Made by a program: the position numbers and the translations under genes. This document shows positions 17,201 to 39,417 of a DNA stretch of 64,000 nucleotides, in pieces. The notes beneath the pieces are model-generated. The model did no database searches. It was given only the letters and a program-made list of their open reading frames with translations, and had not been told where the DNA came from. The DNA lies in contig JAYWIR010000005.1 of the NCBI GenBank assembly GCA_036172245.1, positions 3,968,001 to 4,032,000 on the forward strand. Reading direction: 5' to 3'. Every line of letters starts with the position of its first letter. Position 1 is the stretch's first letter. The stretch comes from Raillietiella orientalis (taxonomy: Eukaryota).

Positions 17201-18531
17201 GTAATGTTGGCAAGACATGCCTGTTTCATAGACTTCAGGGTTTGTCATTTGTGGAGGAATATATCCCAACTGAAGAAATACAGGTTGTTACTGCTTTGAA
17301 GTGCAAACAAGTGAGTTAGTTGCAGGTAGCCAGCATACATTGGAATTATAAAACATCAGATGATGTTGTTAAAGTAGAGGTATGGGATATTGTTGATAAA
17401 GGTGTGCAACAGAGGAAACACATTGGACTGAAAATTCATAGTAAACAAGCGTTATCTCTTGTGAATTCAGCTTTGGATGCTGATTTTTTAGATGTTTACA
17501 AAGGTACCCATGCAGTAATTTTAATGCTAGATATTACCAAGCGTTGGTATGTTTTTATGTTTCTGCCAGTAATTTTACATATTTGTCTATAGGACCTTTG
17601 ATTATGTTTGTCGAGAGTTACCACAGGTTCCCTCTTCAATTCCAGTACTAGTGTTTGCAAATCATTATGATGGAGATCACAAAACAATAACCAAAAAAGA
17701 AATTCATGATTTGATTGAAAGAATAGCGAAGTAGGCAATTACCATTTTTTAAAACTATTTTTATATTAAGAATGTGAAGTCATCTAAAAAGAGCGTATAC
17801 AGTGACCCTAAGTAGAAATTTTGTTCTATTTCAGCTCCAGAAATGCAAGCATACACTTAGCAGAGGGATCAATGAGAAATGGCTTTGGATTACGATTATT
17901 ACATAAGTTTTTAGGCTTACCATTTTTAAAATTACAGCAACAAACATTGATGAGACAAATAGAAGCAAATGCTTGTGAACTGAAATTGATGGAAGAAGAA
18001 TTGGATATTTATCAGAATAGTGAAGAATGTGATTATGACTGCTTTCTACGGCGTTTAGTTAATTACAATCAAAATACTTTAAATGCAAAACAGAATAAAG
18101 AAGATCCTAAACCTCAAAACGTGAAAGATGTTTCTTTGCCTCCACCTAAGCCTGAAGTGCTTCCTGTTCCTCAAACACTAATGCTCTCAAATTTTTCACA
18201 AGAGAACCAACAAAACATTTGTGTTCCCAATAAACAAACGAACGAATCATCCACTATTGTAACACAGAAAAAAATGCCTCTCGGCATATCTTCAGTTCTT
18301 CCACAGTCAAGTTTGCCCAGTGTAGATGATTTCCAACCAGAAGAATCATTATTTGATGAATCTGTATTGAATGAGTTTCTAGAACGTCCCACTGCAATTT
18401 CTCAGTGGACTAGTCCATCGCCACCGTCCATACAGGCTGATGATGACAGTGACGTTGATGAAAGAAATCCCGATGTACTAATTGTTCAAGAAGATTTTGA
18501 TCCAGAAGATGCCATTAACACAGCGATGTGA
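14254..18531 (+). CDS. RABL6: Rab-like protein 6 (RABL6/RBEL1/PARF); exons 14254-14377, 17177-17283, 17326-17546, 17593-17730, 17835-18531
   Basis: The spliced product reads MINAFKKL...[34 protein letters not shown]...[34 protein letters not shown]...[12 protein letters not shown]...[23 protein letters not shown], all characteristic RABL6 motifs. The introns are GT-AG and in phase. The first coding exon is missing from the ORF track. Confidence 0.92.
15030..15373 (+). other. Extremely C-depleted G/T-rich tract, candidate mitochondrial insertion (NUMT, nad4L/nad4-like) inside RABL6 intron 1
   Basis: Only 3 C between 15063 and 15369. In the invertebrate mitochondrial code one frame gives a hydrophobic peptide containing GVCDWVSDGLLVW, reminiscent of the ND4 N-terminal GCDxLSyGLilLsfW. 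Confidence 0.4.
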
Positions 18532-19019
18532 TTTGTGACTTTTTTATTCAGCAACCCATGAGCATCAGTGAACAGTATCAGTGAAATTCCTTGAGTTCAG
18601 AAACACCAATTTGAAATTTCAAGTTAGTATATATGGAAATCAATCATTTTAATCTGTGTAAACTTTTAATTAGATGTATGACATTTAAAAGCATCTTGTA
18701 ACGAATAGTCCCGTTTAAATGTTCCCGACGGACAGAGAATCATCGATATGTGTGCCAATTTTTTTTATTGACGATATGAATTGACTGGGAAACATGCAAA
18801 TTATCAAAATAAAATACATTGGATGGTTGACGACCAAATAAAGAATAGTTCATTTGTGAATTACAATAGACGACAAAGGAAGTGAACGAAATTTCATCGT
18901 ACCCTACTTCTGTACAATTGCAAGCTTTCAGGCGACTGAAGGATGAAAAGTTAAAGATTTTTATGAGTTCAATTCTTGTTGCGGTGATTTTATTGAAACT
19001 ATTTTATTTCGACCCTACG

Positions 19020-22000
19020 ATTTCCCAATTATAAACCAAGAAAAGTTCATTTTCCCACCGAACTCACGGTAGGTCGCGTTCAGAATGCTTTCCGTCCTCT
19101 GGGCACAGTGCAGGTGACTGTGGAGAAGTCCTGGGTTGATCACTAACGAGATTCCTTGTGCCACTTGCATTCTCAGGAACAAAATGGGCCCATCGGGAAG
19201 CATGTTTATAAACATAATGATTAAGGGTTCTCATTTCATTTATGCATGTGATTTTCATTTTTCCGTATGTGTTGCACTCGAGCTGTTCAACTGTACACAT
19301 ACTCTGGCTCGTTACATGAGAATTGTTCATGGAAGGTGTGACTGAAACGGAACTCCAAAACCGGGAACAAGTAACCTGCTCCTTGCCACCAAATGCAAGA
19401 AACTCTTAATTGTACGGCTGTAAAACAGATCAAACCAGAGTAGGGTTTCCGGATCAACTCATCGATCAGCACCTGCCTTCGTTTCGAGTGCATCCGAATT
19501 GCATGTCCTCGTAATTCCCATTCACAGTTGGTAAAATCTCAATGACGTTCCTGTGAAATGAGAGCAGCTCCGAAAACAAAAGAAAAAAATTTATGTGTTG
19601 TGAACGCCAAAGCGTGCTCAAAAGATGGCACCCCTGCAAACCTCACTTCGTGTGGTTCTCAGTCGATCCCAATAGGCAAAACCATAGCTGCTCGTCAGGA
19701 TTGAAAGTTTCGGATCTCCAGCTCAAGTCAAGCTTTGGGATGCTGTTTTACAGTTTGCAAATCCAGCAGAGGATAGCTATACTCGTGCTTTTTTCAAAAG
19801 TTGAATTTTCAGTAACTCGCCGGACCAGCTTAATGATTGATGGGATCGATCTTCGTATGTCATTTTTATTGCATACAGGGAATAGGTAGATAAACAAAAA
19901 AGAAATCTCAAAGTCCAAAAGTAGCTTACAGACGTAGGCAGAAGCCAATGGGGTACTTCAGTTTGAAGCAACATGAGTCATCGGTTCCTCTTTGCTGATT
20001 TCTAGTCTTATCCTTTTAACTATTTGGCAGTCTTCACACATGTAACAGTTCCTGTTAATTAAGAGCACTGCTACGACAAAGCATCATGGTAAAAATGCTA
20101 TTCTTGGCACTGGGTCCCGGCACAAAATCAGTCTTAAAGAATTAAGGGAAAAACTAAAGCAAAAGTTGATCAAAGTGCACTCACTTCGTATGCGAGTTCT
20201 CCAGCCATACTAATGGTAGTTTATTCAATTAAACCACAAGCAAACACAATAAAGTACAAAGAGAAAGACGCAAAGTAAAACAGCAGGTGTCTACGTTCAC
20301 TCCGTGTGTCACTAAATTAACTTCAATGAGAGAGGTTTGTGTACATGTACTGCAATCAATACAATATCCGTCCCTTTCTCAAGTTTCGAGACAATGTCCA
20401 AATTACAGGTGGGCTATTGGACGGAACAAATAGATCGCCGTCGTATAACCAGGTCATGGGGACCATCATTGCCTTCTTTATTAAAAATACTCTTGATAAA
20501 AATCACGAAAATGAGAAGAGAGGGATCCCAGTATGACAGATACTGGTAAACATATGGCTCCATTGAAAAAGGAAACAGTGTCCAAGGCTGCTGGAACGCT
20601 TCCGCGTGGACCCATCATTACATCCTGAAGAAAGTCCATCAAGCAGTCCCCAAATGGAAGATTCTCAACGAGAGAAGTAAACGAAGAAACGCACAGGACC
20701 TGTAGGCAGCCTGCATCTACAACTTGATTGCATTGTAATGCGTCGATGCATTACTTTGGAGTGTAGTTGAATGAATTGCCTCATTGCTTGTCGATTGAAG
20801 AAAACGGAAACGTTCACACCATAACATTCTTCCTTCGTATCAACAAGTCTGACAACTGTGCTTTGCTGGTGAACACGAATGCAGTACAATGCATTTCCTG
20901 AATCACACCTTTTGCAACTTTCATCTTAATCTTAAATGCATGCTTCATCTGTTCCTTGGATGCGGTCCATTTTACTTTGCGAATGAATTTCTAAAGGAAT
21001 TTTCCAAAAGTCTGTCAACGATGCGAGTGTCATTCTGATGAATCCATTGTGATATAACTCTCGATTCTCACCTAAACTACTACTGCTACTATGCATTTGC
21101 TATTTTCTCTCGAAACGCAATGAGGATCTGCATAACAGTCCATCTTCTTGTTTTCCCAGTGCGATTCAAAAATCATTGTAATTCTCTCCATTCTCTTTCT
21201 CATCCCGTTTGCTGAATCGAGCGCTGAAAAAAAAGGAAGAAAAGAAGAAGAAAAGAAAACGCAGTTTGTGATGGAAAGGCACTTTGCTATCGTCGAAGCG
21301 CAGCTGCTTCAGATTCTGTTTCTGACAATCTGTACTTTTCTTTATGACCTATTTTTGTATCCGATTGCATTCTTCAAGAAAGCGATCCGAGAAATTCTAT
21401 CCATGTTTTTTTTTTTTTTTTTCCCTTTTGCATTTCGAAGGAGAAAATGCACGTGCACGATCCTTAGTGCGTAAAAACACATAGCTGGCCGAAGTGTTCT
21501 GTTTCATGACTGCATTACTCAGGGTGCTGTGGCAACGCAGGTGAATGGATGAAGAGAAAATAAATTATTCAAGGGCGCAGGGTGTGTCTGACTGATTCGT
21601 GCGTAAGTCTAATCGCCAACGGCAGTTCTTCGTAAAAGACTGGCTACTTTCAGAATGACTCATCGAAACCGAAGTGGCTTTCAACTGGGACCACTGATGG
21701 TTTTGTGATTAGTTGTTACTTGTTATTCAGTTTCAGTGCATGCCGTTGCAATTATCGTTACAGCTTTTCTATCTGTTCATTTTAAAGTCCTGTGAAAAAG
21801 ACCAGTGAGACGAACGTTAACACTTACGATACAGCAAGTCCTCAGACTTTTTTCTGTAAAAGAAGTTCATGCGGTTTCAAAAAACCATCTTGTGCCATTA
21901 GCCTTAAGGCGTACTCAACTCTGAAAGAGAAAAAAACAACATTGCCAACTGATTACATTTTCTCCCCACGAGATATAATCGAAGCATTTGCTACTCAAAT

Positions 22001-23320
22001 CTACTGCGACCAGTGGCCAGCGTTTGCACGTCCGCTTCTTCACAGGCCATAGCAGTCTCGGAGAATATTGAAATTCATTGTGATCCATGGCTTCTCTAGA
22101 GTTCCATAAAGCTACAAAAGACTGCGCTCCAGACCAAGCGGAAAACAGTGACCCTTCGAAGAAATAGAAGAAAAACGTCCAGCTAATTGATCTGCGATAT
22201 GTTCAACTTTCAAAAGAAACCAGTGTATCCACTTGACACTTTTGATTACTGTCAGGTCAAAGAAATCGTGAACTTCTAATGAAAAATCATTCAGAAAGGA
22301 AAAAGAGTACGAAATGAAGGGAGAATGAAAAAAAATCACCACGTTCAAATACAACGAAGAAGCTGCATGAAAGACTGCAGCTGCAGTTTACTTCGCCTAC
22401 TTGTGGAATGCATTTCTCTCAATCTCGCAAATCTCGAAATTCTACATGTCAATGAAAACAGCTCATCCCAAAATCTCTTGGACAATAAACCTCAAATTTT
22501 CGAGGACGAGCAATGCTGTTGGCTAAAATTGGTGAGAAACGGTCTCTTGTTGCTACCACCCTCTTGTTGCCCATGGAGACACCGTTCTTCAAAGACATGA
22601 AGAACTACGCCAAGATAGCAGCCTGAATCGAAAGAATTGGGTCTCTTATGGCTCCGAATTTGAAATGGGAGTCTAAAAATGGAGATAAACCCTTGGTTTT
22701 TGATAAGGGAGTTGCCCGTGGAAAAAGTTTCCCTAATTTGGTGTTCAGAAGAAAGGCCGACTTGACAGTGTTCTGAAACACCGTTCCCAGAGGCAGATGT
22801 TGGCAGGATGCTGCAACTCACTGTAATCGGTGCTGGTTTCATTAACTCAAATTCAAACTGTGTCTGGGAGCCATAATTTTTCTGACAGCTTTCAGAGATA
22901 ATTCAGCATTACTACTTGATTGCTTCGGAGAGTTGGGTTTGTCAGTTGCTTCAAAGGAAATTGGAATCTAGACTTGGAACATCGACCAGAAGCTCGGAAA
23001 ACATTTCTGGAAAACTGTCGGAATTCACAGCCACATTCCGTTTGTATCTGGCAGTGATGTGCATCCATGTTAGTACTGAACATTGCGAATATTCGAGATC
23101 CAGCTCCGAGCTGACACGTGTCAGCGCGAGGAAGAATTACTTACATCCCTCAAGCAGTGAAGGACACGGAGTTTGCAGTTCATTCACAATGTGCGTGATG
23201 TACTGAGTCAAGAAAGGGAAGCTTCTGGAAAGTGGATCCATCATTACAGGACGGGCACAGAAATGCGTCCGATATCCTGAATTAAGAGTTACTTGGAAAA
23301 CACTGAGAGACTTGAAAGAT
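19020..23320 (-). mobile_element. Highly decayed BEL/Pao LTR-retrotransposon pol relic (protease-RT-RNase H-integrase)
   Basis: Motifs occur in the expected order on the minus strand across frameshifts: QTECG (T.lGW, ~23040), FRLPFQ...NSFD (~22660), LSDLLIR and RFF...NLPFG (~20850-20650), LYDGDLF (YVDD site, ~20440), QLLKKARV..SIPKLDL (KsRVaP..tIPrLEL, ~19800-19730), IWWQGAGYL (lWw.GP.fL, ~19390) and a His-rich integrase zinc finger (~19130). No LTRs were seen. Confidence 0.6.
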
Positions 23321-24213
23321 ATGAAAAAACATCCAATTACTGGTGTATACTTATCTGAATCCGTATTACTGATGTCAGTACTTAAAGCGATCTATCAGTT
23401 CTCAGAGATCTATCGTTCTATCAGTCTCACAGAGACTGATAGAACAGATGCAGGTGAGACTGACCTTCAAGAACCTCGTTGCTCATCCCCTTGAATCTTC
23501 TTCCCAGACAAACTTTTCCATCTAAAGGGCTTTTTACGCTGCCAATCAGGAAAACTTCCGGTAAATGCTAAGGAGTCGTCGCTTTGTAGACTAAGAAAGC
23601 GTTTGGTATTCAAAATTAATGGAATATTCTTCAAAAATTATGATTTTTCTTCTATTTCGAAACTGACGTCCCGAGAACCCGGACGGCTAAGAAAGACTGC
23701 CAACTCGCAAATGCTTCCGCTTATTCCTTCACATCTCATGCAGTTTTCTTAAATACATATGCTAAGATGCTTGTGCTTTCGCAAGTGGAATCTTCCGACA
23801 ATCCTTTCTGGCAATCTGACATCTGGAAATCGACTTTGAAAATCTGGAAATAGAAAAAAAAATTCCATGGGCAAGAATTTTCAGCTGTTTTCATTTTAGG
23901 CCCACCTGGAAACGAAATGTGGAACGAGTAAACTGGAAAATAAAAAGCACAGGAATATGATGCATGGAACAAGCAGGCAGTTGCCGATAAGTCGAAGAAA
24001 TCTGGGACTCCACGGTTCCATTCTAGAGATGAAAGGATCAAGAGCCATTTCCTGGAACCCAGTTCCAAATTAGAAATAGACAAACTTGCGATGAAGACTT
24101 GGAACATCGACCAGACGCTTTGAAAGTATTTCCGGAAAACTTGGAATTCACAGTCAGCCACATTCTGTGTGCGTCTGATGATGATGTTCAGCCACGTTAG
24201 CACTGAGCACTTG
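22974..24213. repeat. Diverged ~110-bp direct repeat, copies at ~22974-23084 and ~24100-24213
   Basis: Both copies begin ttggaacatcgaccaga and continue ...ggaaaact..ggaattcacag..ccacatt...gatg...cca.gttag.actga.ca. Probably two fragments of the same Pao family. Confidence 0.75.
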
Positions 24214-24399
24214 AAGAAGACAACAAACTTTGAGTTTCCGCTTACCGCCTAGAGCTGAATCCAAAAGAAATTTGTTATTTCAGAGGCGTGGAATGCATTC
24301 ACCGTTTCAAACGCGTTGCACAGTTCAGCTGCGGCAGAGTGTGGATTTTTTTTCCGAAACTTATTTTGGAAACAGATTGCGTCCATCCGAAACATCGAA

Positions 24400-24955
24400 G
24401 GTGACAAAGAAACGAACTGTCGTTTGGCAGCATGGCGGAGAGTCGTGTTCTGGAGGCCCTTGACTCGGCCTACAGGAGCGGCAGCAAATTATTCGATCGT
24501 CTGGGAACTTTTCCTTCAGCTGGCAGGAGCAGCTTATGAATGCGATCGCTTATCCGAGACTCCTTACAAGGGTCAGAAAAGCAGCAGCTGCATTGCGGAG
24601 GACCGAATCAACACGAGCTCATTTCGTGTGGACGAAGCTAATACATGAAAGGTGTCCGATTCTTCTTCCAAGCTGCAGAGTATTGACGTGCCCCAACACT
24701 TTGGTTCTGTTCTTATTTATCTGTTTGTTTGTTTGCGGAACTGAGAGTTCGGGAGATGCAGCGAAGACGTTGATTTCCAACACCTCTAGAATGATCGCAA
24801 AGCGGACTGGAGGCGCAGCAAGCAAGTAGTCCTCTGGCATCCGCCATTGTCCTTGTAAGTGCTGCCAGAATATCGGAGAAACTGCGAAGACTGACGAAGA
24901 TGACATAGGTCTTTCGAACTTTCCTGCTTTCCTCTTTACGGAGCTCGCTTGTTCC
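24400..24955 (+). mobile_element. Possible inverted BEL/Pao gag-protease fragment
   Basis: LASAIVLVSAARISEKLRRL...RTFLLSSL resembles the Pao aspartic peptidase (vLLaTa.V.v....R.llD.GSq.tFi). It is frameshifted and the similarity is weak. Confidence 0.3.
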
Positions 24956-27920
24956 AAGAAAAACAAAACAAAAGCAATATATAAGTACATAAGGGTATTC
25001 GTATTCATCCGTTTCACAAATAAGCTAGGGGAATAACAAAAAATAGTTAAAAAAACATTGCCCTTATGATGAATAAGGAGGGCTAAAAAAATTAAAGAGT
25101 CGGAAATGATGAATACTAAAATATTGCTTCTATAATTGAAAAACAATGGATAAATACATAATGAAAATAACGCATAAGCGATAATAAATGAAAAACATCC
25201 TGCCTGTAATAAGTAAAAAGATAACTAAATGGAGATTGTGGAAATTGGAATGATAAGAATGTAAAATTATTCATAATCAAAATGAAAAAAGGTATCGGAA
25301 TTAATAAATAACAAAAAATATAGCTTGCAAAGGAATCAGTGGATAAATAGAGAGAATAAAAATAAGAAGGAACCACAGATAATAAAAACTAAATAAAAGT
25401 CCTTGCACCTACTGTCGTAGGAGTCACATTCTTTGCCTGTTGCATGAGGATGCCAGAATCGGCCTTTCACCTGGCCTACAGGACACGGAAGGAAGAAGCT
25501 TCAGCACGCTGGGTCGCAGTCCCCATAGCCGGCTGACCCTGGCTGCCTGAGGCTCAAGTGAGGGCACAAGAAAGCCACGGATCGGTTCGTGGTGCAGAGC
25601 CACCTTTCTTCCCTCGCGCGCCGGACGCTTCCGCATTTTCGTGCAGGGCTGGGCTGCCCGGCGTGCCGGATCCTTGCGTCTTGCTGCTGCAAGAGACCCC
25701 TCCTGAAGGCGTGCGAGGAGATGAGCGTTGGCGAAGAGGCGGAGACATCTTCGCCATAGGCGGGGCTAGAGCTGCCCGCGGCCGAGAGGGGAAGAGCCAG
25801 TGAAGAGTCGGTATGGAATCCTTCCTTCCCGGCAACCCCTTCGTCTCTGAAGGCATCTAATGGCTGAAGAGGTCTGAAGGAGGACAACTGCGGGAGGAGA
25901 CAAGGAAGCGAGGTGCGGGGGGCGCCAGGTCATGGCGGCTGCGCCAAGGTCTCATCGACGGGGGCTACGGAAAAGATCGCTGTGGGGGAAGAGCTGCTCC
26001 GGTGGGCCGAACTTCCTTCCGCGCGCGCTCTTGGAGGGACAGGTGACGACTCTTCCCTCCAGACCTCCGGAAGGGCCACCCTTCTTCCTGAGCTGGGCCT
26101 CTCGCGCCCCTTCGCTGACTGTGGACGCCTAGAAACGCCTCCTAGGGTTAAAACTCCTCGCCAGAATGTAGAACGGTTGAGTACGGAGGCCTCCACAGGC
26201 AGTAGCCTGAGAAAAGAGCACCGGCTCGTTCCTCCCCATAACGGGAGAGCCACCTGGTGGAGCCTCTCCATGGGAGGCGCTTGATCGCAGCTTCCCTCGG
26301 CTCCACTTCGGGAAGCGAAGTTCCGGAGTGGGAGGAAGAGAAAAAGGAGGAAGGACTTTCCTCTCTTTCTCTCGGAGCTGAGAGCTTGTCCTGACCTTTC
26401 GAAGAGCGATTGACCTGAGGGCTGATGTTCAGACTCCCTCACGCAAGTCCTGACGACCGTCCCCGACTCGCCAAAGTCTGCACTCTTGACCCATTCAGGA
26501 GTTACCAGTCTAGCTAGAAACTCCGGGGCCAGGAGCACTCCCGGATGACCTCGCTCCTGCGCCCTCCTTTTGACTTCGGTCTCACGCTCTATTTTGAAGG
26601 GGAACCACTCCCACCAGACCCTTCCCACCGCTAGGCCGGTGATGGAGTCTCGGCTGGAGGTGGAACGACGCGCGGGAGAGGCCCAGGAAGGTGATAGCGT
26701 GGGTGGTTCCCACTCCCACACTCTCTCGCGCCGTCTGCCGGAGCCGTAGGGTCACGGAGTGCCCGCACGCTGCTGCGCCTCCGTGCAGAAGCTGCCTCTC
26801 GCCATGGCAGTCCCGTTGCCCACGATCCCTGCCTGCCTCCTCCCCGTCTCACCCCCACCCGCATGTCCCAAGCCACAGCTGTACGATTGACGCCGACTTT
26901 TCCACAAAGCGCCCCTCTCTAGGAGGAGAAGGCGGACCAGGAGGGGCAAGGGGTGCTTCTTTCTCCCAAGAAGGGAAGGTCCCTCGCAAACCTCTTCGTC
27001 CAGGAGAGTCTTAAACGTCTCCGTTGATGGGCCCGTCGCCGGTGGAACCGAAGCGGAGAGGTGAGGTGCATTGAAGAGGGAACAGGCGCGTAGGGGTGAG
27101 GTGGAGAAAAGGTAGGATGAGGAGGGCAGTCCAACCTTGTATGGAAATGATGACAGCATGGGTGGGAAAGAGAGGAGATGCGGAGAGGATGTCCCTGTTT
27201 TCTCTGTCGGGATCGCTCGCTGAAGGTCTCTGGAAGTCGAACCTTCGGATTGACCTGCAACCACACTGGATAGGAGTCTCCTGGGCTAGGAAGAGGGTGA
27301 TATGTGCCTCTCTGGATCCTGCGAGGTCGCTCCCTTTCCTCTGCAAGTCTTTCCCCTGGTTCTGTTCTCCCAAGAGGGGAAGAAGGGAAGGGACCATCAG
27401 CCGCGGCTGCGTCGAGGGCTCTGGAGCCTTGGGGATGCCTCAAAGGGGTCTTGCAAGGGTGTCCAAGGCACCTGGCGGAGAAGATTTCCAAGGCAGGGAT
27501 CCTCCGTCCCCTCGACCCTCCCTGGACCAGCTACAGTCAGAGGGAAGAGGACACCCTCGAGCCGCTTGGCCTGAAGAGTGCCCAGTTCCCCTCAATCGAG
27601 TCCCGGGTGCGGTCTTCTCCGAGAATCCTCCCCCCCCCATCCCCATCCCTGCACAGTAACAAGGTCGTTGGACTTCTTCCCTCGAGAGGTGTGCTCTTTC
27701 AGCTACACTCAGGATTCGGCGTCCTTCCTGGGCCCTAAGGCGTGTTTCCCGAGTGCGACCGGAGGGGACCGCGTTGCTGTCCTCGGCTGGAGGGGAGGGT
27801 AGGGAAATTGGGAGAGGGGGGGTAGAGCGAGGAGGGTGGTGTCTTCGGGAAGGACAGGTGATGTCGCAGCGATTGGCCAGCGTGGACTCTCGGGTGCGTC
27901 CAGCCGGTCCCGAGAGCTCC

Positions 27921-29712
27921 CTACTTCTCGAACCAGGACCCGCCGTGGCCATCCTCGTGCAGCCTCCAGATGGAGGAGATGTTCCTGTAGAACTTGAAAG
28001 GCCTACGGAGATCGCTTCTGAGGGGGTTGGGCGCTCCGCGCGTTTCGGCCGCTCCAAGGACCTCCCGGTGTATCCTGAAGATTTTCCTGACCGCATGCTG
28101 GAAGAGAAGGGGAAGGGAGTGCGCAGCGCCGGCAGCGGGGAGAGAGGTCTCCTGGAGGCAGGGGAAGGGAAGGGATGGAGGTGCACCTCTGATCCGGTGC
28201 ACCCTTCCTCGTAGAAGGGTGCTCTACAGATGCTGCCGGGCGCCGCCGCCTCGGCCGAGGTCTCTGTGGGGATGGTGCGCGAGAGACGGACGGACGAGGG
28301 TGGGGAGGGAGGACTTACCAGGATCTGCGGCACCACCGAGTGCGTCAGAGACTGCAGCCACATCTTCTTCTGTTGCACGAAGTTCTTGTATTCGTTCCTC
28401 TCCTTCGCGTAGCCTTCCATCCGCGTGATGATGGTCGGCAGCTTCTTGTCCGTGGGGCCCCTCATCTGCAGGAGGCAATCGCGGTCGGGTCCCGGAGGCG
28501 GGAGCGCAGCTCCGAGGGAGGGGTGCCCACCTGACCGAAGCACTGCTCCATGTTCTCCAAGAGCAGGATCTCCACCTCCAGCCTCCGATTCACGTGCTTC
28601 AAGGAGAAGAGCTCGCAATCCACGGCGCTCTGGTCCAGTCCGGTATCCTCCACGAGGTGCGGGTCCTGCAAGAACTCAGCCGCCCTGAGCGCTTCCCGAA
28701 AGCGGGGCAAGGGGGCAGGAGAGTTCAGGACGCTTCCCCTCTCCTTTCCTTCCTGGTCCTCCCGTCCCCCAGCCCTGACCACGCCCTCACGTGGACGGGT
28801 TCGCTCCTTCTCGTCCCTTACCCGACAGTCCCCTCGGAGGGAGCGCCCACACTCATTGGTGCACCCCCTTTCTCGCGCCCATTCTAGATGGGGATGCAGG
28901 CAGGGAAGGAAGACTGACCTTCTCCATCGCCAGAAGCGCCCTCCGGAACTTCCTCTCGTAGGTCAGCTCCTTCAGCAGGTCGTCCGCCACCTGCTGCAGG
29001 TGCTCCGTCACGTAGACGAATTTGCACCTCATAAGCTGCAATCAGAATGACAACGGAATGACCTTGAAGCGGACTCTTTCAACCGGGCTCCCCGGTCCAG
29101 GGGGGCAAGGGAGGGGAGACAACGATGGGACAGCCCCGAACGCCCTGCCTCTGCTCTCGCGTGCGCTCACGCCTCAGCCGCCGACGAGAAGGCCACCGGC
29201 TGCCGGAGGCACCTGAATGCTGCCACCTTCTTCCTGCGTTCCCCGCGCAAAGCCCTGGGAAGGTCACGCCCGCTCACCCCCCTCGCTTCCTCTTTTCCCC
29301 TGGGCTGGGGTGCCGTCTGGTAGCATACGTCCACGCAGCTCTCCCAGGACCTCCGACTGACCCCGCCGCTTCTGCTGTCGACCAGAGGGGATGCTCTTGA
29401 GAGACCCCACCCACCCCGGGAGATGGAGGCGGTAGGAAACGCTCGGCCCCTTGGGGCCTTCCCTCTCCTCTCGCTCGCGGCTGTACTTACAGACAGCTGG
29501 TCATGCTTCGCGAAGGACTTCAGCTGCTGGAGGCACAGGAGGCGGGAGTCGCCTCCCAACACTTCGTCCTTCCTCCCCTGTCTGGAATCGCGTCCGTTCG
29601 CTTCCGGGTCCCCCACGTCGCCAGGGTCCTTCCAGGTCCTTTCCGGAGAGCTGCTGCTGCGGCGGTTCCTCGCGAGCACCTCCTCTCGACCTTCCTCGCT
29701 GGGGGTAGGTGA
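27921..29712 (-). CDS. Further orphan coding exons in the GC island: ~29490-29712, 28919-29035, 28531-28665, 28319-28465, 27921-28097 (same or second gene)
   Basis: Three consecutive exons of 117, 135 and 147 nt have CAG acceptors, donors gtcagt/gtgggc/gtaagt and are all phase 0. They read LMRCKFVYVTEHLQQVADDLLKELTYERKFRRALLAMEK-DPHLVEDTG...LEVEILLLENMEQCFGQ-MRGPTDKKLPTIITRMEGYAKERNEYKNFVQQKKMWLQSL...QIL-HAVRKIFRIHREV, an amphipathic, coiled-coil-like sequence. Confidence 0.6.
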
Positions 29713-29757
29713 CCTGAGGAGGGTGCCAGAAAGGCAGGTGAGGGAAGCCTCCTTCCC

Positions 29758-32080
29758 TCATGCCCCCCTCTGGCAGGGACTCGACGATGAGGGTAACGGG
29801 AGGGAAGTAGGACCGCGGCCGGGGAGCGTCTTCCCGGCCGCGAAGCTCAGTCTCCGCGGCGCCGGTAACGAGGTGGTCTCAGTCCGGCTCTTTCCCGATC
29901 TGGGGTTAGTGATGCACCCGGGGTGACTCAAGGAGACGGAGGGAGACCGCGCCTCAGCGGCAAGAGGCGGGAAGCGCGGGTTCCCGGAAAAACCGTTGCT
30001 GAGCTGAAGAGGGAGGGGGCGTTTCAGGCTAAGGCGTAGGCGTCTGAGGAGAAGGGAGGGGGGAAGGGAAGAGTTATGTCGGAGCTTGAGCTCGCCCTCC
30101 CTGGAGAGCTGGTCTCCCTGGTCCGGTGCGTCTCTCGGGGAGAAGGCGACCCTCCTCCCTTGGTGGGATTTCCATGAATCCAGAACCTCCACCGGGGAAG
30201 AGAGGGTCCGCCATCTTTCTTGCGAAGGTGGAGGATCCTCGCGCGCGGTTTCCGAAGAGGCGGAAGGAGAAACGACCTCGAGCCCCCGCGACCATCCCGC
30301 TGACCTTTCGTTCCTCTTCCTCCCTGCAGACAAGGAGTGGAGGCATTCCGCCAGCGCCTGCGCGCTCCCTTCCTGCGCTCTCGCCGGATGGGGAGGGAGG
30401 GGCTCCTCGTCGTCCTGGAGCGGTCCCTGCAGCTGCATCCTAACCTGCTTGCCCTTCTTCGGAGGAGCGCCATGCCTGCCGCGCCGCTCCTCGTCGGATC
30501 TCTCTCCGGAGGTGGCAGAAGGTCCGCGAAGGCACCCACGAGGGGGGAGGGGGAGGTGGCCGCTGAAGCCGCAGCGGCAGCAGGAAAGCAACGCCTGCTG
30601 CTGCTGCTGCCCTTGCCGAAACCCCTCGTGCTCCTCGCCGTCGGAACAGAGCCTGTTTTCCTGCTTCTCTTCCCGATCTTCCTCCTTTTGGGCCGGAGCT
30701 TGCTCCTCAGACGTGGACGTCGACGATGACGGCGTCGACGACCTCGACGACAGAGATGACGGAAGCGGAGGCGGCGACGGCGCTCCCGAGTGGCGGTGGC
30801 GGCAGCAGCAGCAGAGAGCCTCAGTGTCCGCCTCCAGGGTCCCGGCAACCTTTGCTCCCCCTCCGGACTGAGATGGAGAACGGGATGCGACATTAGGGGA
30901 GCAAGGGGGAGGATGTGAGGTGGAGGGGCGGAAGATGCGGCCGTTGCGGCGTGGGCGCGCCGCTTCAGTCTCTGGAAAGAGCTCTCTCTGGAGCTTCCGC
31001 AGGAAGGCGACCTTGTCTTCTATCTGCCGCAGGCACTGGGAGAGGCGCTTCCGCTCCGTCTTTCTCCTCCCGTAGCAGCGCCTCTGGATGAAAATGTACG
31101 ACTTGCTGAGGACGGTGAAGGCTTTCTCGAAGCGGTCTGGACCGTACATCTCCGGGAAGAAAGTGGCGGACGCAGAACCGTCGCTGGACCTCCGGGAGCG
31201 AAACAGCAGCAGCAGCTGCGCCACTACACCCACTATGCGCAGGTTGATGTCTTCCTCCACTTCTCCCACGTCGTTGTTCGCCTCCTCCTTCGTGGAGGAG
31301 GAAGAGGTGGGAGGGTGGCAGGCGGCACGGAGGGCGTGCTTCTCCTGCAGGAGGAACTCCAGGTGGCGGCGGGAATCTCTGGCGTCCCCCTTGCAAGGGT
31401 AAAGGGGCACGCGCCCGGGGTGACTGTCCTGCATCTCCTTGCAGCCGTCTCGTACTGTATCCAAAATGAGGGAAAGTGGACTGATGCCATCGTCTTCGAA
31501 GAGACCGTAGCGACGCAGCTTCCAGGCGATCTTGTAGCCGCAGGAGAGCGCGCTGCTCCTCATGCCCAGTTGCGACCCGCGACCGGCGTCTCTCGGTCTC
31601 TCACCGACAGAGAACCTCAGGTTGAGGTGAATGGTCTTCTCCGTCTTGCTGAAAAAGAAGAGAAGGGGAAGAGAGACAGACATGACAGGACGAGAATGGA
31701 AGAGGGAGGGATGATGCAAGCAAGGTGGACGATCCAGGAGCCCACCTCAGATCCCCTTCCCTTGGCAGGAAAGCTCCAGGAGCAGCAGCAGTCTGATGGC
31801 TCTCCCTGGAAGTCTCTTTTGTGCCTCTGTGGCCGCCGCTGCTGCTACTTCTGCTGCTTGAGGACAACAAACCAGCGTCATTGCCAACGCAACCCGTGGC
31901 GCAGTCTTCACCCCCAGCTTGGGCGGAGGTTTCTCTGCTGCCCTTCTTCTCGGAAGAAACTTTCTTAACAGTGGCGGATAGGGAGTCCTCCTTCCCCCAA
32001 AGCATGTCCTGGATGAGGCTCCTGGCATCCTCGAGACTGTCGCAGCACTTCATGGCCAGCTTCTTGCCCATCGCGGGCAT
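29758..32080 (-). CDS. Orphan spliced gene in the GC island: exon 31746-32080 plus long exon 29758-31648 (~740 aa if it stops at 29758)
   Basis: The ATG at 32080 is preceded by an in-frame stop. A phase-2 donor (ag|GTGGGC) and a polypyrimidine acceptor (ttcttttcAG) define intron 31649-31745, which joins exactly into the 653-aa ORF frame. The product has a helical-looking region (IAWKLRRYGLF...RLSQCLRQIEDKVAFLRKLQRELF) followed by S/P/R/E low-complexity sequence. Confidence 0.6.
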
Positions 32081-32747
32081 GTGTGCGCGGATTCACCTCT
32101 CGGAGACCAGGATGTGTGGGCAGAAGAGGGGGGATGAGCAGTGGCAGGTGGTGGGACCGCCCCGATTTGGAGGCAAAAGAAAGGAAGGTATTGAACTGCA
32201 AAATGACGGGGGAGAAAGGTCAGCTGCTCGCTAACTGACCGGCAGAAGCAGGGATGAGTCCTGTGCGATGGAAAACTAGAGAAGGATGCACTGGTATGGG
32301 GAGGCGGACGAGGGAGGGTAACGCTCAGAATTTGCACCGGGAGTACGAACGGATGGTTGTCGTGTAGCCGGCGGGGCAGTGGGACTGCCCCTGCGATCTT
32401 TTGCTCCTCAACAAGGAAAAAAAATCTAAATCTAGCTCGAGCGCTTTGTCATGGAAACAGAATTCCACTTCATTCTGTCTCCACGCATGCTCTCCTCCGC
32501 AGGGAACGTCTGCATGTATCTTCCCTTGCCCTGCTATGCCTTCGGCTGTCTCTGTTACCAACGAGTGGGTGATGATGATGGCGGTGGTGGTGGTGAAGCA
32601 GGTGATAAAGACAATGTGGATGATGGTGCCTTGAGAGATCCCTCTCTTCTTTTCTTCTCACCTCCATCCTCGTTTCCCCTGTGCGAATGGCCAAAGTCAA
32701 CAGAAAGACCACGATGCCCGCAGGAGATGAACTTTCCCTTGGAATAC

Positions 32748-33812
32748 CTTCCGCCTGCGGGAGGATGCCATTCTGAAATGGTGAGGACGCACACCTCAGA
32801 GTGGTTATTCGTCCTCTTCAGCAGCGCGCACACTCGAGGTTTCCGGCTTCTCTTTATCCACGGGTTCGTCTCCAGGCCGCTACCTTACGAATCCTCCCTC
32901 TGGTTGCTCCGTCCCTCTTCCGAAAGAAAGCACCAACGACAGCGACTGTGGTTCAAATCAGCCCCATCAGCACTACGCCCCAACTCGGGAAAGCTCTGAG
33001 AGATCGTGATGAAAAGAAACCAAACTTTTCTGAAGGGAAGATCTTCCATCGGAAGATCGTGATGCAAGGAGGGTGAGAGGAGGTGAGATTCCTACAGTCA
33101 CCTTCCCAGGAGAGACTTCAAAGCGCCCTGGATCAGGGACATCCTCGGAAAGCAGTGGTCTCGACTCTTCAAGGGTCTTCGAGTAGCGGTTTGCCATCCT
33201 GGGGGGTTTCTCAGGAGAGTAGGGCAGGGAAAGGGAATAGGAGAAAGGGCGTGAGCGAGCACCTCGCGGGAGGAAAAACCGTGAGGCGAGCCTCAATCCA
33301 GTCTCCACCTTGTGATATCCAGACGCAAACTGCTGCAACCAGAGGGCGGGAAAAGACTAGGAACATCGGAAGGAAACTTTCCTTATTTGCAGCACTCTGT
33401 GAATGAAGGGACGAGAGACCGACGGTATCCCAGGGCAAGGAAGAAGCCGCAGACCACCTCGAGACGCAAAGAGGAAAGTGCAGATGGAAACCACTTCCTG
33501 AAGGACAAGTATCTTGTTCACCTTTTGTTGCTCGGCACTTCCTCCTTTCTCACGCCTCCGACCACAATGACAATGGGCCGGAATAAAGTTAAAATGAGCT
33601 GATTTGGAGCACAGTCGCTGTCGTTGGTGCTTTCTTTCGGAAGAGGGACGGAGCAACCAGAGGGAGGATTCGTAAGGTAGCGGCCTTGAGACGAACCCGT
33701 GGATAAAGAGAAGCCGGAGACCTCGAGGGTGCGTGCTGCTGAAGAGGACGAATAACCACTCTGAGGTGCGCGTCCTCACCATTTCAGAATGGCATCCTCC
33801 TGCAGGCAGAAG
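32748..33812. repeat. 215-bp inverted repeat (arms 32748-32962 and 33598-33812) around a 635-bp spacer
   Basis: Manual alignment is ungapped with 9 mismatches. The ORF track shows the same peptide (GGCHSEMVRT...RPLPYESSLWLLRPSSERKHQRQRL) on opposite strands. Confidence 0.95.
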
Positions 33813-34395
33813 AGCGCGCCTTCTCGGAGCACTGTCCTCCGGTGGCAGAGAAATCGTTTCCAGCCTCCCAATTCCATGTAGCAAGACAAAAAAAAAATGG
33901 CCTAGAGAAATAGGTCGAGATCGTAACGGGAAAGGGTATCGTCCAAGAGTCGTTTGGGAGAATGAGGGAAGAACTAGATCGTTCCCACCAGATAAAAGAA
34001 CAGTCACGCTTTCTGGATGCTCCCAAACAAAAAACATTTCAAGAAAGATAGGAAGGCTTCTTTGGCTCTAGCTCTTAGCCCCTCCCTCTTTTATCATCTT
34101 TCCGAAAACCAGTATCGGCTTGCTTGTGACTGCTCCACGGAGGATGACAGCGAAGACTGGCTAGCATAATCTCATCAGTACTTGAATTAACACCTCGAAA
34201 AGATTCAAGATATCTTAAAGACGTCAAGAAAAGATGCCAAGATAAGGCAGCAATCAGAAGTCTTAACCAAAAATCAGTGATGATAGTGCCTATTCTTCGA
34301 GAAGAGAAAAAAGAACCCTTTTGAGACTTTCTTTTTCCCACAACTGGCTATAAATTCACGGAAATATGATTGCTAGCTCTGTGGATCACAGAAAC

Positions 34396-34472
34396 AATTT
34401 AATTTAATTTAATTTAAATTTAATTTAACATCTGTGCATCGGGGGCCTTCATGACCCCCGATGCACAGATGT
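34396..34472 (-). repeat. (AATTT)n microsatellite abutting a perfect 18-bp stem-loop; possible 3' end of a LINE/SINE
   Basis: acatctgtgcatcggggg (34428-34445), a 9-nt loop, then cccccgatgcacagatgt (34455-34472), directly next to aatttaatttaatttaatttaaatttaattt. Confidence 0.6.
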
Positions 34473-37100
34473 ATAAAAAAATTCACAATTTCTTTGCACA
34501 AATAGCATTAAAAATTTTCATTATCAAAATGTCATTAATAACGGAATTATTAGAATGCAATGCATACAAATTGCAATTGCTTAATTTTGTAGCTGAAATT
34601 TTTGAGTATTACTTGAGTTACACTTGGCAACTCTGACATTTCTAAGAGCTCTGGTAAAACGATTTCGAATTGCGGCACTTTGATCCTTTTTATTCCATTT
34701 TTTTTTCTGAAGCTCATGCACAGCAGTGACTCAGTTTATTCATTCGAATGTCAAGGAAAATAGCAAGTGTGAGTATGGATATCTTTGTACCAGATGGAAA
34801 ATTGGACTTTGGGCTCTCATGATATCTGTTAATTTTAATTGAAACACTTCTGTGTTTGACAAGTTCTCAGTAACTATGAAGCGTCACAGAATGAAAAATG
34901 CATTTCTCTTTTTACCTCAAGCTACCAAATAAACAGCCGGTTCCCCAAAAATTTCGTGAGAATTCCGCTCCAGCAGTTTGCTTTCTTCTACCTAAAAGCG
35001 TTTTCATTTTCCTTTCAGTAAACTGCAAGGAAAAAGTTTTGCTTTGAAAAAGTTGCGTTATCTCTAAGCGTACAAAGTGCACATTAAATTAAATCAAAAA
35101 TGTTGAGGCAGCAGAATTTTCGGAATCCATATTTACATGCTTTCCAAAATTCGTGTACGCTTGCACAGAATTGGAACTGTTTGTCGATGATTTCACCGTC
35201 TGATGAACACTCACTTTATCACGGAATCCCTTTGCCTTGTTTGTGTTCCTGTTCCAAACCGGCCAAGTTGACTTTCCTGGAAGCGTTCATCGTCTGGCTC
35301 TTGACGGTGATTAAATTCTTCGCGACGCAGTCCACAGCCTTTTGGTACAAATGATCCAACTGTAAAAAATAATGCACACTGGGGGAAAAAGCATGAGTCT
35401 CGTCTTACTGATTTTATGAGGTTTCAAGTGAAATTTATATTGGTACTTTTTATTTCCTTGTTTAGTTCAGTCGTCTAACGTATTTTCTATTTCAGTCTTA
35501 CCACTTCCTGCTGTTGTTTTACAGGTTAACCGTAATAAGTTTGAATATAGGATTACTAATTCAGTTATTTCTTACGAAGACGTGATAGTAATCACACCAC
35601 GGACCCCAAAAATCAGTTCACTTACAGTTGTTTGCTTAAATGGAATAATTTTAGCAGTGAGACGCCAGACAAGACACAATTATTGCAGTAAAAACTGTTT
35701 TAGGGATGGATTGATGTCTCAATTTAGCATATTAGCTTGATGAACCACGATTCCAAGTAATTTCACAGAAATGAAGCAAGATCATTATTTTTACTTATAT
35801 TTTAAAGGAAGGAATGCGTTAAGTAAAGAGAATGCATCCTGATTTCATTTGCAACAGATTCCAGGCAGGCAGAATTCTATGTAGTTCGCTTGGTTTTCAC
35901 ATTTGTGACCCAAGTTCGTTCGAGACACTGAAAAGTCCAAGCAAAATTTTTGAAAAATGTGCTGAGAACTTGATGAATTGACATTTTTAGCAGTTTTCGA
36001 GGAATCTGATAATTCGTTTCCCTCTACAACAAATGCATTCTCATTGCAAGTGCTTGATCACATCAAACGGAATTTCCATACTCGTTGAGCATAATGCGTG
36101 CTACGCACGTATTATGTTTCACATAAAACTTATGTGGTACCTTAATTCCTAATTAGCAAAACTTTAAGTACTCTACTTAGCAGCGATAGGTGCTATTCTT
36201 TTGATCTTTAAAGAATCTACTACATTTGCAAAATAACTGAGTTCGCTGCGAAGATGTGGACTGCACAGAACCGTGCTTGGTATTCTGATATGAGATCTTA
36301 GTTATGCTAATATCATACTTTTCCCTAAAAATAATTTCTGCCGTTAAAAAGGTGTACATCAAATTCACGTGAACCTTTTTAGAATTTGATCGTACGCAAC
36401 CTACGCGCGTAATGTTTACAAACAGTTCATGAAGGCCCCTCTTAGACACAGGCAGCATGACCCTAGAAATACGTTACAAGCATCGGTTTCAAATTCAGTT
36501 TCTGCATGAATAACCAATAGCTTTTAAATGTGGATCGTGCAGTTCCACCCCAGTTTACAAAAGTCACCAGTAACATCCTACAAGATCAGGTGGTGGGCAA
36601 GCAATGGATAGAATTCGTGATTGGCGTTACGTGCAGAAGAAGAAAGCGTTTGTCAGGTGTAAAGGGACTGTCAAAATCATTTGTAGCACTGGCCACTTAT
36701 TATACATGATTTCATGAAACAGTACTTTTCACATTTTCTTTGAAAAATGCTGCTCGGACGCCCTTGGTCACAAATTCATATCAAATTAGCCTTAAGAGTA
36801 GAATCGTGAAAAAAAAAAAAAAGAGAAAACCTTGGATTCAAATCGAAACAGTCAGATAAACTCTCGCGCATATAAATTTGATTTGAAACTAGCCAAGACT
36901 TTTTTTGTCAAAAAACCAAAAAAAAAAAAAAACGTTACTGACTTGTTATTCTCCAAGATGAGATGCTTTCATCGAACTTTTGACTTTGAAAGAAAAAAGG
37001 TTCCACTGACTGGAACTCATTTATTGAAATGTCTTTTCTCTACTTTATCTTAGTAGCGAAAGTAAAAGATCGGAAATGCTTTTTTTTAATGTATTTAATA

Positions 37101-39417
37101 TCAGGTATAAAATTCTGGCAGAATTGTCATTGGTTGACTAGTTGATGCCATGTAATTGCTATCATATTCTTCAAACAAATCAACAGGCTCAGTTTTTGGT
37201 ACAATCATGTCAAATTTTTCTTCATTGGATTTTTCTATTTCATTAGTTGTATTACTAACATCATTAGCACTAACATCAATACTGGGATGATTTTTTTCCT
37301 GATGCTTTAAAAGTAGGGTAGGTGTTTCATAACATGCCCCACACAAATCACAACAATTCAGCTTCAAATGCACTTTCTTGGCATGCTTCATGATTCCACT
37401 GCTTGTCTGACATACCTTCTTGTTGCAGTACTTGCACATATACAAACGTGTGTGACCTGTATGTACAACAAGGTAATGCTTTGAACGAAGAGTATCCTGT
37501 AAGAAGGTGAATGATTTGATCACAATTATCTGAACAAATTACTTGATCACTTTCTGAAGGACTTTTCTTCTCTCCATCATCTTGCATACTACTATCTGAA
37601 AATCCACCACTTGCATTCACAAAAGTTGAGGAATTCTGAGAGATCCCTGAGTGAGTTGAGGAAACAGGAGAAGGCTGCTCTTTGCTGTGTTCTTTGTTCT
37701 CCTCTTTTTTGCTTTCATCAGATGCATTCTTCTGCCGACTATAATTAATCCAATCCTTTTCATCAATTAGCATTTAAATGATGAATAAATGGACTGCATA
37801 CCCGTTTAGGATGTGCATGTGGGACATGCAAAACCAGTTTGCGCCGTTCTCCAAATGTCTTGTTGCAAATCAAACACTTGTATACTTCTAGATGTTTGAT
37901 ATGATGGAATCGGTAAGTTTTGCGATTACTGCTCACATGCATACACATGGAACACATCAAATTGTCAGAAAATGGAATATGCAATGAGGATTCAGAAGGG
38001 TATAACGTTAAAAGCAGATTCTTCAACTGGGTTGGTGTTTTAGCTTTATATTTGCTAATTGCATTTTTGTCATGATGCTTGCTTAGCATATTTTTCAGTT
38101 CATGCCTCTAAAAGAAGAATGCTAAAATGAGAAACACAAAGAAATTCTTATAAACCTTGTGCAAGACATGGATGTGCCTGAGTAAATTTGCCTTATTGCT
38201 GAATGCCTTGCCACACTGAGAACAGGTATGCTGTTCTGCATGTTCTTTGTTAACCTGAGAGTGAATTACTGCAGTATGTTCTGCAGTCTGGCAGAAACTA
38301 CAATGTCGATCTTTCATCTTTAATATTTTGAAACTTGTACAATTTGTGCTGCTAAGTCTGCCATCATGAAGTTTTCCTTAAAAAGAGGAAACTGATTTTA
38401 CAGAAAGGAGCATTTAGTTATACATACGTTTCCCAAGGGAAGACATAGCATCATTTTTGAATTCTTGCTAAAATATTGTTACAAATCATGACAAAGTGAT
38501 TGGCAGCCAATCATACCTTGTGCACATGACTCACATGAATTCTAAGTTTTGTACTTTCTCCAAAGCATTTTCGACAATACTGACATTTATAAAGTTGTTG
38601 ATGAATAGCCCAATGTTTACGGTATGAAATTCTAGATGCAAACGTGGTATGGCATTTTTTGCATTCAAGATCAAGAGGTACAATGCATTTTTTTTTCCTG
38701 CTTATCTTCCTTTTAATTGTCGTTGCTTTAATTACATTTGAAGATAAAGGTCTTATTCTTAGATTTGAACTGAATGGTTTCACAATTTTTTTTTCTTTAT
38801 TTTTGTCATTCTGCAACAAAGTTAAAAAAAAAACAAAAAAAAAAAAAAAACATGACCATCTAATTCCCATTTTATTAATCCTATTAACAAATATTATTTT
38901 GCTGCAAGCATCCACAAAACATGAATGAAACATAAGTATGACCTACTTCTGATTCAGTTAAAGATGCACTTGCACGGCCAACTTTCGGCTTCCCAATTTT
39001 GATTTTGAATTTCGGTAAGCTCTCCTCCTCCTTGACATCTTCCACGTTGGAGGGATTCTCTTGCAGTTCACAGCACTTGATTGCATCGATCTCCAGGAAC
39101 GCACCTATTTCTGATAATTTACCATGTTCCTCTTGTTCCAGTGCAACTCTTCCGTAGTAAATCAGGTGTAGCAGGTCGTACACCACCTCATAGTCGAAAT
39201 CGGGCAACGACAGGCTGATGTAGTCCTCGTTCCTGTCTGCAAGCAGGGTTCGGAGGACCGGGCTGACAGCAGACAACACGGCTTTGTGGCAGTTCACGAA
39301 GCCATCATTGCAGTATATGGTCGTGTCCACATAAGACTGGTTTTCGAAACACGTCCCGAAGGAGTCGGCAAAAGCGTTACTGTGCTCCTTCCAAGGTATC
39401 CGAATTCCTTCCGACAT
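37101..39417 (-). CDS. BTB/POZ domain + multiple C2H2 zinc-finger transcription factor, multi-exon
   Basis: Arthropod-type BTB (IPWKEHSNAF...YVDTTIYC...HKAVLSAVSPVLRTLL...LLHLIYYGRV) followed by many CxxC...HxxxH fingers. In-phase introns were identified at 38108-38155, 37756-37801 and 37497-37542. Confidence 0.88.

Follow-up and report, generated by a model that had tools for sequence, protein, structure and literature searches.

Genes that arthropods have taken up from other eukaryotes can keep their introns, as in the fungal carotenoid genes of aphids and spider mites, and GC-rich domains of recombination and GC-biased gene conversion (gBGC) are found within the AT-rich genome of an insect, the honeybee. 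GC-rich blocks are also familiar as CpG islands, recognized by the criteria of Gardiner-Garden and Frommer (more than 200 bp in length, a GC content above 0.5 and an observed/expected CpG ratio, CpG o/e, above 0.6). Borner and Burmester, in 2017, are said to have dealt with apicomplexan contamination. Here we describe a GC-rich island at positions 25,416 to 34,070 of a 64,000-nt stretch of the Raillietiella orientalis assembly GCA_036172245.1 (contig JAYWIR010000005.1, positions 3,968,001 to 4,032,000 of the forward strand); this whole stretch is referred to below as the window.

Like the carotenoid-gene transfers, the island presents a gene of non-animal style linked to arthropod genes, with a composition and introns that differ from those of its neighbors. 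The carotenoid genes, in contrast, have a phylogeny and a named donor group whereas the island gene has no homologue, and, with some 4.5 kb of non-coding flank attached to that gene, the island looks more like a raw piece of genomic DNA than a gene long domesticated. With the honeybee domains, in which genes evolve quickly, it shares a strong heterogeneity of GC content across exons, introns and intergenic DNA; unlike them it has a step edge, a shifted dinucleotide signature (delta* 0.24, where delta* is the distance between dinucleotide relative abundances normalized for base composition) and an excess of purine and pyrimidine runs that would not be expected from conversion bias alone. At 8.6 kb, GC 0.60 and CpG o/e 0.75 the block lies within all three CpG-island limits, but it is about ten times longer than CpG islands of the vertebrate type, spans a whole gene and its 3' flank, and is least GC-rich on its promoter side; moreover, the other unmethylated DNA of the host has an equal o/e at a GC content of 0.35-0.50. 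Foreign-looking eukaryotic sequence in an arthropod assembly is also the subject of those parts of PMC7003083 that concern assembly contaminants, but contaminants are usually separate contigs, and the island lies within a contig, flanked by host genes to the left and right without a gap.

Composition, edges and dinucleotide signature

The island and the tract that adjoins it are as follows.

25,416-34,070, no strand: whole GC-rich island (GC 0.60, CpG o/e 0.75, 20% in purine-only or pyrimidine-only runs of at least 8 nt)
25,020-25,415, forward strand: A-rich, purine-rich tract (GC about 0.25-0.27, AT skew +0.34 to +0.41), outside the island and adjoining its left edge

A preliminary description of the window had placed a GC-rich island at 25,420 to 34,070, and the island is real at these coordinates, with a GC content of 0.603 over its full length and 0.623 in its core (25,416-32,400), against 0.317 in the far left flank and 0.357 in the right. 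Outside it the window is AT-rich (GC 0.28-0.40 in most 1-kb bins), and there is no N anywhere in the 64 kb. When composition is followed in non-overlapping 200-nt intervals, the island averages 0.604 (range 0.49-0.69, n = 43) and the remainder 0.350 (standard deviation 0.062, n = 277), and 36 of the 43 island intervals exceed 0.555, the maximum of all 277 others. The GC-rich block is thus far beyond chance, and its observation is confirmed.

The left boundary is as abrupt as first described: GC content steps from 0.25 at 25,200-25,399, within the A-rich tract, to 0.58-0.66 from 25,400 onwards, and the log-odds of the Markov model introduced below pass from -0.68 to +0.41. The right edge is gradual, with GC content falling over some 400 nt across 33,800-34,300. 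Leftward of the A-rich tract lies a shoulder of about 6 kb (19-25.4 kb) over which GC content falls from 0.49 to 0.40, and outside the island a value of 0.48 is reached in only four short blocks, 24,301-24,900, 39,101-40,300, 42,601-43,200 and 56,801-57,100.

Exons, introns and upstream DNA had all been called rich in both GC and CpG. The first part holds in every compartment, since the coding sequence has GC contents of 0.60, 0.50 and 0.76 at first, second and third codon positions (GC1, GC2 and GC3), the six introns 0.53-0.75, the 3' flank 0.61 and the 5' flank 0.53, with a plateau spanning the gene body and its 3' flank and the lowest values on the promoter side. The second part holds for density in absolute terms; as a ratio, the CpG o/e of 0.75 is not above the 0.7-1.0 of non-genic DNA in the host, whose gene bodies show strong depletion (0.09-0.5).

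Encoded around the island are a RING1-type ligase, an HSP20 and a RABL6-like gene on the left, and a BTB zinc-finger gene, mitochondrial EF-G, a piggyBac-type open reading frame (ORF) and a TAPR1-like gene on the right; the RABL6-like gene is named from the preliminary label and the ORF 17,320-18,531, which has no Pfam match of its own. The RABL6-like and BTB zinc-finger genes converge, and the island sits in the 18.5-kb spacer that separates their 3' ends.

The island differs from its surroundings in more than base composition. Its delta* from every flank is 0.20-0.24, compared with 0.05 between its own halves and 0.04-0.10 among host regions, and the 5' flank shares the signature of the core (delta* 0.05). 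The dinucleotides AG/CT and GA/TC are over-represented (about 1.4 versus about 1.0 in the host), TA is avoided (0.35 versus about 0.7), and the 20% of the island in purine-only or pyrimidine-only runs compares with 6.5-9% of the flanks. A third-order Markov model trained solely on 26,416-31,400 scores the untrained ends of the island (25,416-26,415 and 31,401-34,000) as island-like and the regions 18-25.4 kb and 34.1-38 kb as host-like, its sign flipping at 25,400 and near 34,000. The GC-elevated promoter block of the host BTB gene has a delta* of 0.20 to the island and 0.12 to the host. No hexamer is over-represented in the island (top z 1.8), and motifs attributed to coccidian promoters show no enrichment there.

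We note one other patch of island-like character, at 42,690-43,230, on the upstream side of mitochondrial EF-G and 0.5 kb from its first coding exon. Its GC content is 0.52, purine and pyrimidine runs occupy 26% of it, its GA/TC value is 1.56 and its Markov log-odds are +0.13 to +0.24. It contains many short palindromes and has RNA folding z-scores of -2.3 and -3.0, with no Rfam match and no sequence in common with the island.

The gene inside the island and the search for its relatives

The island carries one minus-strand gene of seven exons, encoding about 951 amino acids (aa) and interrupted by six GT-AG introns, one of them only probable; non-coding DNA that is likewise GC-rich extends for about 2.5 kb on its 3' side and about 2.0 kb on its 5' side. 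Its parts are listed in order of coordinates, from the 3' to the 5' end of the gene.

25,416-27,920, minus strand: 3' non-coding DNA downstream of the stop (2.5 kb, GC 0.61, no codon periodicity)
27,921-28,097, minus strand: exon 7 (58 codons and a TAG stop at 27,923-27,921)
28,098-28,318, minus strand: intron 6 (221 nt, GTAAGT...CCAG, GC 0.67, phase 0)
28,319-28,465, minus strand: exon 6 (49 codons)
28,466-28,530, minus strand: intron 5 (65 nt, GTGGGC...GCAG, GC 0.75, phase 0)
28,531-28,665, minus strand: exon 5 (45 codons)
28,666-28,918, minus strand: intron 4 (253 nt, GTCAGT...GCAG, GC 0.64, phase 0)
28,919-29,035, minus strand: exon 4 (39 codons; the ATG at 29,032 is a possible start of a separate 190-aa gene)
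29,036-29,490, minus strand: intron 3 (455 nt, GTAAGT...GCAG, GC 0.66, phase 0)
29,491-29,713, minus strand: exon 3 (GC1/2/3 0.65/0.51/0.78)
29,714-29,917, minus strand: probable intron 2 (204 nt, weak donor GTGCAT, acceptor CTCAG)
29,918-31,648, minus strand: exon 2 (1,731 nt; strongest periodicity in the island; GC3 0.80 at 31,647-31,000)
31,649-31,745, minus strand: intron 1 (97 nt, GTGGGC...TTCAG, GC 0.53, 78% pyrimidine)
31,746-32,071, minus strand: coding part of exon 1 (ATG at 32,071 with G at -3 and +4; N-terminus MGKKLAMKCC)
32,072-34,070, minus strand: 5' flank (about 2 kb, GC 0.53, no codon periodicity)

Four stretches (28,201-28,800, 30,401-30,900, 31,001-31,500 and 31,801-32,100) show codon periodicity with a chi-square of 31-39, equal to that of host exons, and all four fit the minus strand, with GC3 > GC1 > GC2. 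Once joined, the exons give 951 uninterrupted codons with no frameshift, and the 3' ends of all six introns are pyrimidine-rich. Because of this host-like periodicity, the canonical splice sites of five introns, the agreement of their frames and the open joined frame, the island gene is, as judged from the DNA itself, a genuine protein-coding spliced gene. The intron lengths of 65, 97, about 220 and about 250 nt given in the preliminary description were reproduced (65, 97, 221 and 253 nt), with the 455-nt and the probable 204-nt introns added. An alternative in-frame ATG lies upstream at 32,080 in a weaker context.

The weakest part of the gene model is intron 2. A 662-aa ORF within the gene stops at an in-frame TGA (29,760-29,758), past which the frame stays open, and even the best intron that preserves the frame has a poor donor. 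The segment removed as intron 2 has a non-coding pattern (GC1/2/3 0.49/0.73/0.75) and both of its neighbors are coding-like; the TGA is probably spliced out with this weak-donor intron of 204 nt. Alternatively, it may mark the boundary between two genes of 738 aa and 190 aa, or be a single fresh nonsense mutation. An alternative genetic code or selenocysteine was also considered for the TGA and is unsupported, there being one such codon only; neither a selenocysteine insertion sequence (SECIS) nor any other Rfam match was found at E <=0.1 over 25,000-34,600 or at the gathering threshold over the window, and no tRNA was found in the window. On the gene strand there is no AATAAA or ATTAAA in the 3 kb from the stop to 24,900; the chance expectation in such GC-rich DNA is only about 0.1, so that the missing signal is a weak point. 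Behind host stops, AATAAA follows at 134-158 nt (RING1) and at about 280-300 nt (RABL6-like). Because this signal is missing and a weak donor is needed to skip the TGA, it appears doubtful that the host would express the gene.

Exon 2 encodes a long low-complexity region rich in S, R, P, E and Q, preceded by an N-terminal part that looks globular. As a whole, the predicted protein would have a helical N-terminal region, a disordered S/R/P/E-rich middle of about 400 aa and a helical C-terminus of about 190 aa, and its N-terminus contains a possible acylation motif (MG...CC).

Codon use, amino-acid content and introns all set the gene apart from those of the host. Its exon GC3 is 0.76 compared with 0.26-0.36 in host exons, so that the preliminary claim that the island is unlike every flanking gene stands for these, with the BTB exon (0.54) as an exception; 76% of third bases are G or C compared with 33% in the host. 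The residues G, A, R and P make up 31% of the island protein versus 18% of host proteins, and F, Y, M, I, N and K 15% versus 27%; with this GC-biased amino-acid content, the protein evidently evolved for long under GC pressure. The island introns measure 65-455 nt at GC 0.53-0.75. For the host, an intron class of 41-48 nt had been described, and a crude scan does give three candidates of 43-46 nt (GC 0.26-0.38), but the only host intron verified by protein alignment, RING1 3,409-3,485, is 77 nt long (GC 0.34).

Searches for relatives of the gene returned nothing usable. None of the 132 island ORFs searched against Pfam (9, then 123) had a passing match, and BCL9, the sole family listed, fails the cut-off at E 0.03; as the preliminary description had reported, transposase, integrase and viral domains are therefore lacking among these ORFs. 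An exhaustive HMMER search with the 662-aa ORF found no match at E <=0.001 among 1,835,955,588 protein representatives. The short C-terminal exons were searched singly, each as its own query, and in a 5.8-billion word index exon 6 gave one candidate and exon 7 gave 14, none of which scored. There was no usable match for the gene in the ESM Atlas, and none in the PDB by sequence for a 250-aa piece of exon 2, for exon 5 or for exon 7; two matches of 21-23 residues between exon 6 and designed SAKe proteins were treated as chance. For 250 aa of exon 2, AlphaFold2 in single-sequence mode gave an unusable model with a mean predicted local distance difference test score (pLDDT) of 41. Among metagenome contigs, none of 176 pattern matches to the exon-2 piece was confirmed. 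For exon 6 one of 210 was confirmed (L001), a 21-residue match within a 625-aa ORF that has a secretion-signal-like start and lies on a contig of 48% GC, and it was judged unrelated. In viral contigs none of 25 pattern matches was confirmed. Full-text searches of the published literature found no report of a comparable block.

The island gene is thus an orphan to all of these searches, and no closest homologue in a non-host group could be named, there being no homologue at all; this orphan status neither proves nor disproves a foreign origin. The S/R/P/E-rich protein and the DNA rich in purine and pyrimidine tracts may resemble those of coccidian genomes.

Origin of the island

We favor a true insertion of foreign eukaryotic DNA, with a rough probability of 0.38. 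The island would then be a genomic fragment of another, GC-rich eukaryote, comprising a complete gene with its own introns and flanks, and such an origin is suggested by the differences in signature, codons, amino acids and introns. Compared with the host, the island is atypical in GC content, delta*, run content, GC3 and amino-acid bias; of these, the signature shift, run content and amino-acid bias, together with the introns and the step edge, favor a non-host origin, whether by acquisition or as a chimera, over a conversion hotspot. The insertion would also be evolutionarily young in the host genome, because, in a genome whose neutral DNA has about 32% GC, 2.5 kb of non-coding sequence at 61% GC would be expected to erode and because the gene has no frameshift; non-coding DNA at 61% GC persists only if it has recently arrived, is upheld by biased conversion, or is not of the genome.

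Confident arthropod genes flank the island on both sides, a linkage that is valid only if the assembly is correct. Where PMC7003083 treats synteny, it uses synteny with host genes as a criterion for candidates of horizontal gene transfer (HGT) in arthropods, and linkage to host genes on both sides without a gap places the island among such candidates. As for the manner of integration, a BLASTN comparison of one edge with the other at word size 7 returned only chance matches of 22 nt or less, with no terminal repeat and no target duplication, and there is no second copy of the island within the 64-kb window. Because the ends show no repeats or duplications, capture would most likely have been by end-joining at a chromosome break rather than by transposon carriage. 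Two candidates were set aside: a Helitron-type end, seen by eye at a small hairpin (25,409-25,422), lacks a CTRR terminus, and a 23-nt similarity between 24,455 and 25,461 does not extend. The only repeat reported in the island lies in its 5' flank, where it contains no domain and has no copy elsewhere in the window.

32,748-32,962, no strand: left arm of inverted repeat (215 nt, 96% complementary to 33,598-33,812; spacer 635 nt)
33,598-33,812, no strand: right arm of inverted repeat (215 nt; partner of 32,748-32,962)

Several observations weigh against a foreign insertion. The right edge is gradual, and the edges bear neither a target duplication nor a filler signature. No donor is identified, so that composition is the sole ground for calling the island foreign, and a host gene that evolves fast would equally be expected to be an orphan where few relatives have been sampled, the host RING1 having only 66% identity to its best relative. 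Host GC content is itself uneven, reaching 0.50 in the BTB exon and promoter and 0.40-0.49 at 19-25.4 kb, and the run-rich, GA/TC-rich patch at 42,690-43,230 raises the prospect that composition of the island type may be native to the host.

The preliminary description had offered three options: horizontally acquired eukaryotic DNA or the cargo of a large mobile element, a conversion hotspot around a fast-evolving gene, and a chimeric assembly. DNA of a foreign type is favored among them, the hotspot is weakened and mobile-element cargo is unsupported. Under the hotspot reading, which we consider somewhat unlikely, a host-born, lineage-specific gene lies in a long-lived recombination domain where biased fixation of G and C has lifted exons, introns and flanks jointly and shifted the protein to GC-encoded residues, the A-rich tract being a later insertion that sharpened the left edge. 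Every site class is indeed GC-rich (0.53-0.75), as this predicts, and by our own arithmetic a population-scaled bias B of about 1.3 would raise GC content from 0.32 to 0.63. The CpG o/e of 0.75 is like that of the host's own unmethylated DNA; other host blocks have elevated GC (24,301-24,900, 39,101-40,300 and 42,601-43,200), including the patch of island-like signature; the 6-kb shoulder at GC 0.40-0.49 beyond the A-rich tract and the gradual decay on the right may fit such a domain; the gene is intact, with canonical splice sites; and its orphan status is unsurprising in a poorly sampled lineage. The delta* of 0.20-0.24 and the threefold excess of purine and pyrimidine runs, however, are not products of a weak-to-strong bias, and the BTB promoter block, GC-elevated as it is, does not converge on the island signature. 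GC content forms a plateau across the gene body and its 3' flank and reaches its minimum on the promoter side, AATAAA is missing for 3 kb, and hotspots are not known to be as broad as this 8.6-kb plateau or as sharp as its step edge. A native island would mark an extreme, sharply bounded GC-conversion domain with a fast-evolving orphan gene in an AT-rich genome of the crustacean lineage, and would be useful for the study of recombination landscapes.

All of the evidence for foreignness applies equally to an assembly artefact, in which a contig from a GC-rich contaminant eukaryote (a parasite, an epibiont or gut content) was mis-joined or gap-filled between host sequences. Contamination is common in arthropod assemblies, according to the parts of PMC7003083 that concern it. 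An undamaged gene is expected of a living donor, and sequences prone to mis-joining lie close to both edges, namely the low-complexity A-rich tract at the left junction and, about 0.3 kb past the right edge, an (AATTT)6 microsatellite leading into a palindrome whose arms are 29 nt and whose loop is 9 nt long (34,396-34,483). It would take two false joins, however, for a piece of 8.6 kb to land neatly between two genes of the host, and the window has no N; the right compositional edge is at about 34,000-34,100 and not at the microsatellite (34,396), with 300 nt of host-like DNA between them; and a TGA spliced out by way of a weak donor is odd, though possible, for a working gene of the donor. 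We judge such an artefact distinctly unlikely; were it the case, the island would point to a fault in the assembly and to a GC-rich eukaryote, as yet unsequenced, that lives with the animal. Least probable, and at long odds, is that the island forms the cargo or body of an uncharacterized large mobile element or endogenous viral element. It does lie in an expanded intergenic spacer beside non-genic DNA with a degenerate repeat at 1.1-kb spacing, it contains the 215-nt inverted repeat at 96%, and the region is tolerant of transposons, as the piggyBac-type ORF found elsewhere in it shows. Yet none of the 132 island ORFs has a passing Pfam domain, the edges have no terminal inverted or direct repeats and no target duplication, a second copy is absent from the 64 kb, no relative was confirmed among the 25 pattern matches in viral contigs, and six spliceosomal introns would not be virus-like; mobile-element cargo is thus unlikely.

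Returning to insertion of foreign DNA, a more specific form of it is the recent transfer of a raw 8.6-kb fragment from an unsampled GC-rich protist, perhaps a germ-line parasite or symbiont of the host, and this we consider unlikely. The fragment would comprise a promoter region, the seven-exon gene with its native introns and the 3' flank, caught before any erosion to the composition of the host, and the 42.7-43.2 kb patch might be another, older fragment derived from that source. Two fragments would indicate that nuclear DNA of a symbiont has leaked into the host genome more than once, the eukaryotic equivalent of Wolbachia insertions. Should the junctions prove real, the island would be among the very few fresh, unprocessed pieces of another eukaryote's chromosome in an animal genome, with introns and flanks included. 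A true insertion would offer direct tests of the route by which DNA enters, of the speed of compositional drift towards the host, and of whether the host spliceosome and polyadenylation machinery read a foreign gene architecture. Under any reading, the block should be left out of, or treated specially in, surveys of gene content and HGT pending a read check.

Host genes and other features of the window

The host is best taken, from the sequences of its genes, for a pancrustacean of a poorly sampled lineage. Of 2,300 candidates for the RING1 exon, 1,986 proteins match at E <=1e-10, with no more than 66% identity in the best of them, and the named top matches with full coverage are from barnacles, Daphnia, decapods and insects; in a quick one-gene tree, drawn with no support values, the window falls next to the two barnacles. 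The N-terminal motif of the host BTB domain appears to be the one typical of arthropod TTK-type BTB proteins.

CpG o/e varies along the host DNA, being 0.09-0.4 in gene bodies (10,000-18,000, 44,000-47,000 and 61,000-62,000) and 0.7-1.0 in intergenic DNA and the BTB 5' exon, a mosaic that points to germline gene-body methylation, of which it is typical. The BTB gene itself (37,104-39,468, minus strand) is heterogeneous, with a GC3 of 0.54 and a CpG o/e near 1 in the BTB-domain exon and a GC3 of 0.32 in the zinc-finger exon.

To the left of the island, the spacer at 18.5-25.4 kb has a GC content of 0.40-0.49 and a CpG o/e of 0.83. The 'Pao debris' reported at the left boundary could not be recovered, as no Pfam family was found in 18.4-25.4 kb among ORFs of at least 75 aa or among 79 ORFs of 38-74 aa (79 of the 115 listed were searched), and six read-through frames of 18,532-25,418 likewise yielded none. 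Codon periodicity is borderline at 21,601-21,900 (chi-square 25), with no ORF or domain to account for the signal. The spacer also contains a degenerate direct repeat, with copies at 22,958-23,085 and 24,083-24,213 that are about 79% identical over 122 nt and lie 1,125 nt apart. On the right side of the window, a piggyBac-type transposase remnant (DDE_Tnp_1_7, E 3e-14) occupies 51,255-52,056 as two overlapping ORFs in different frames.

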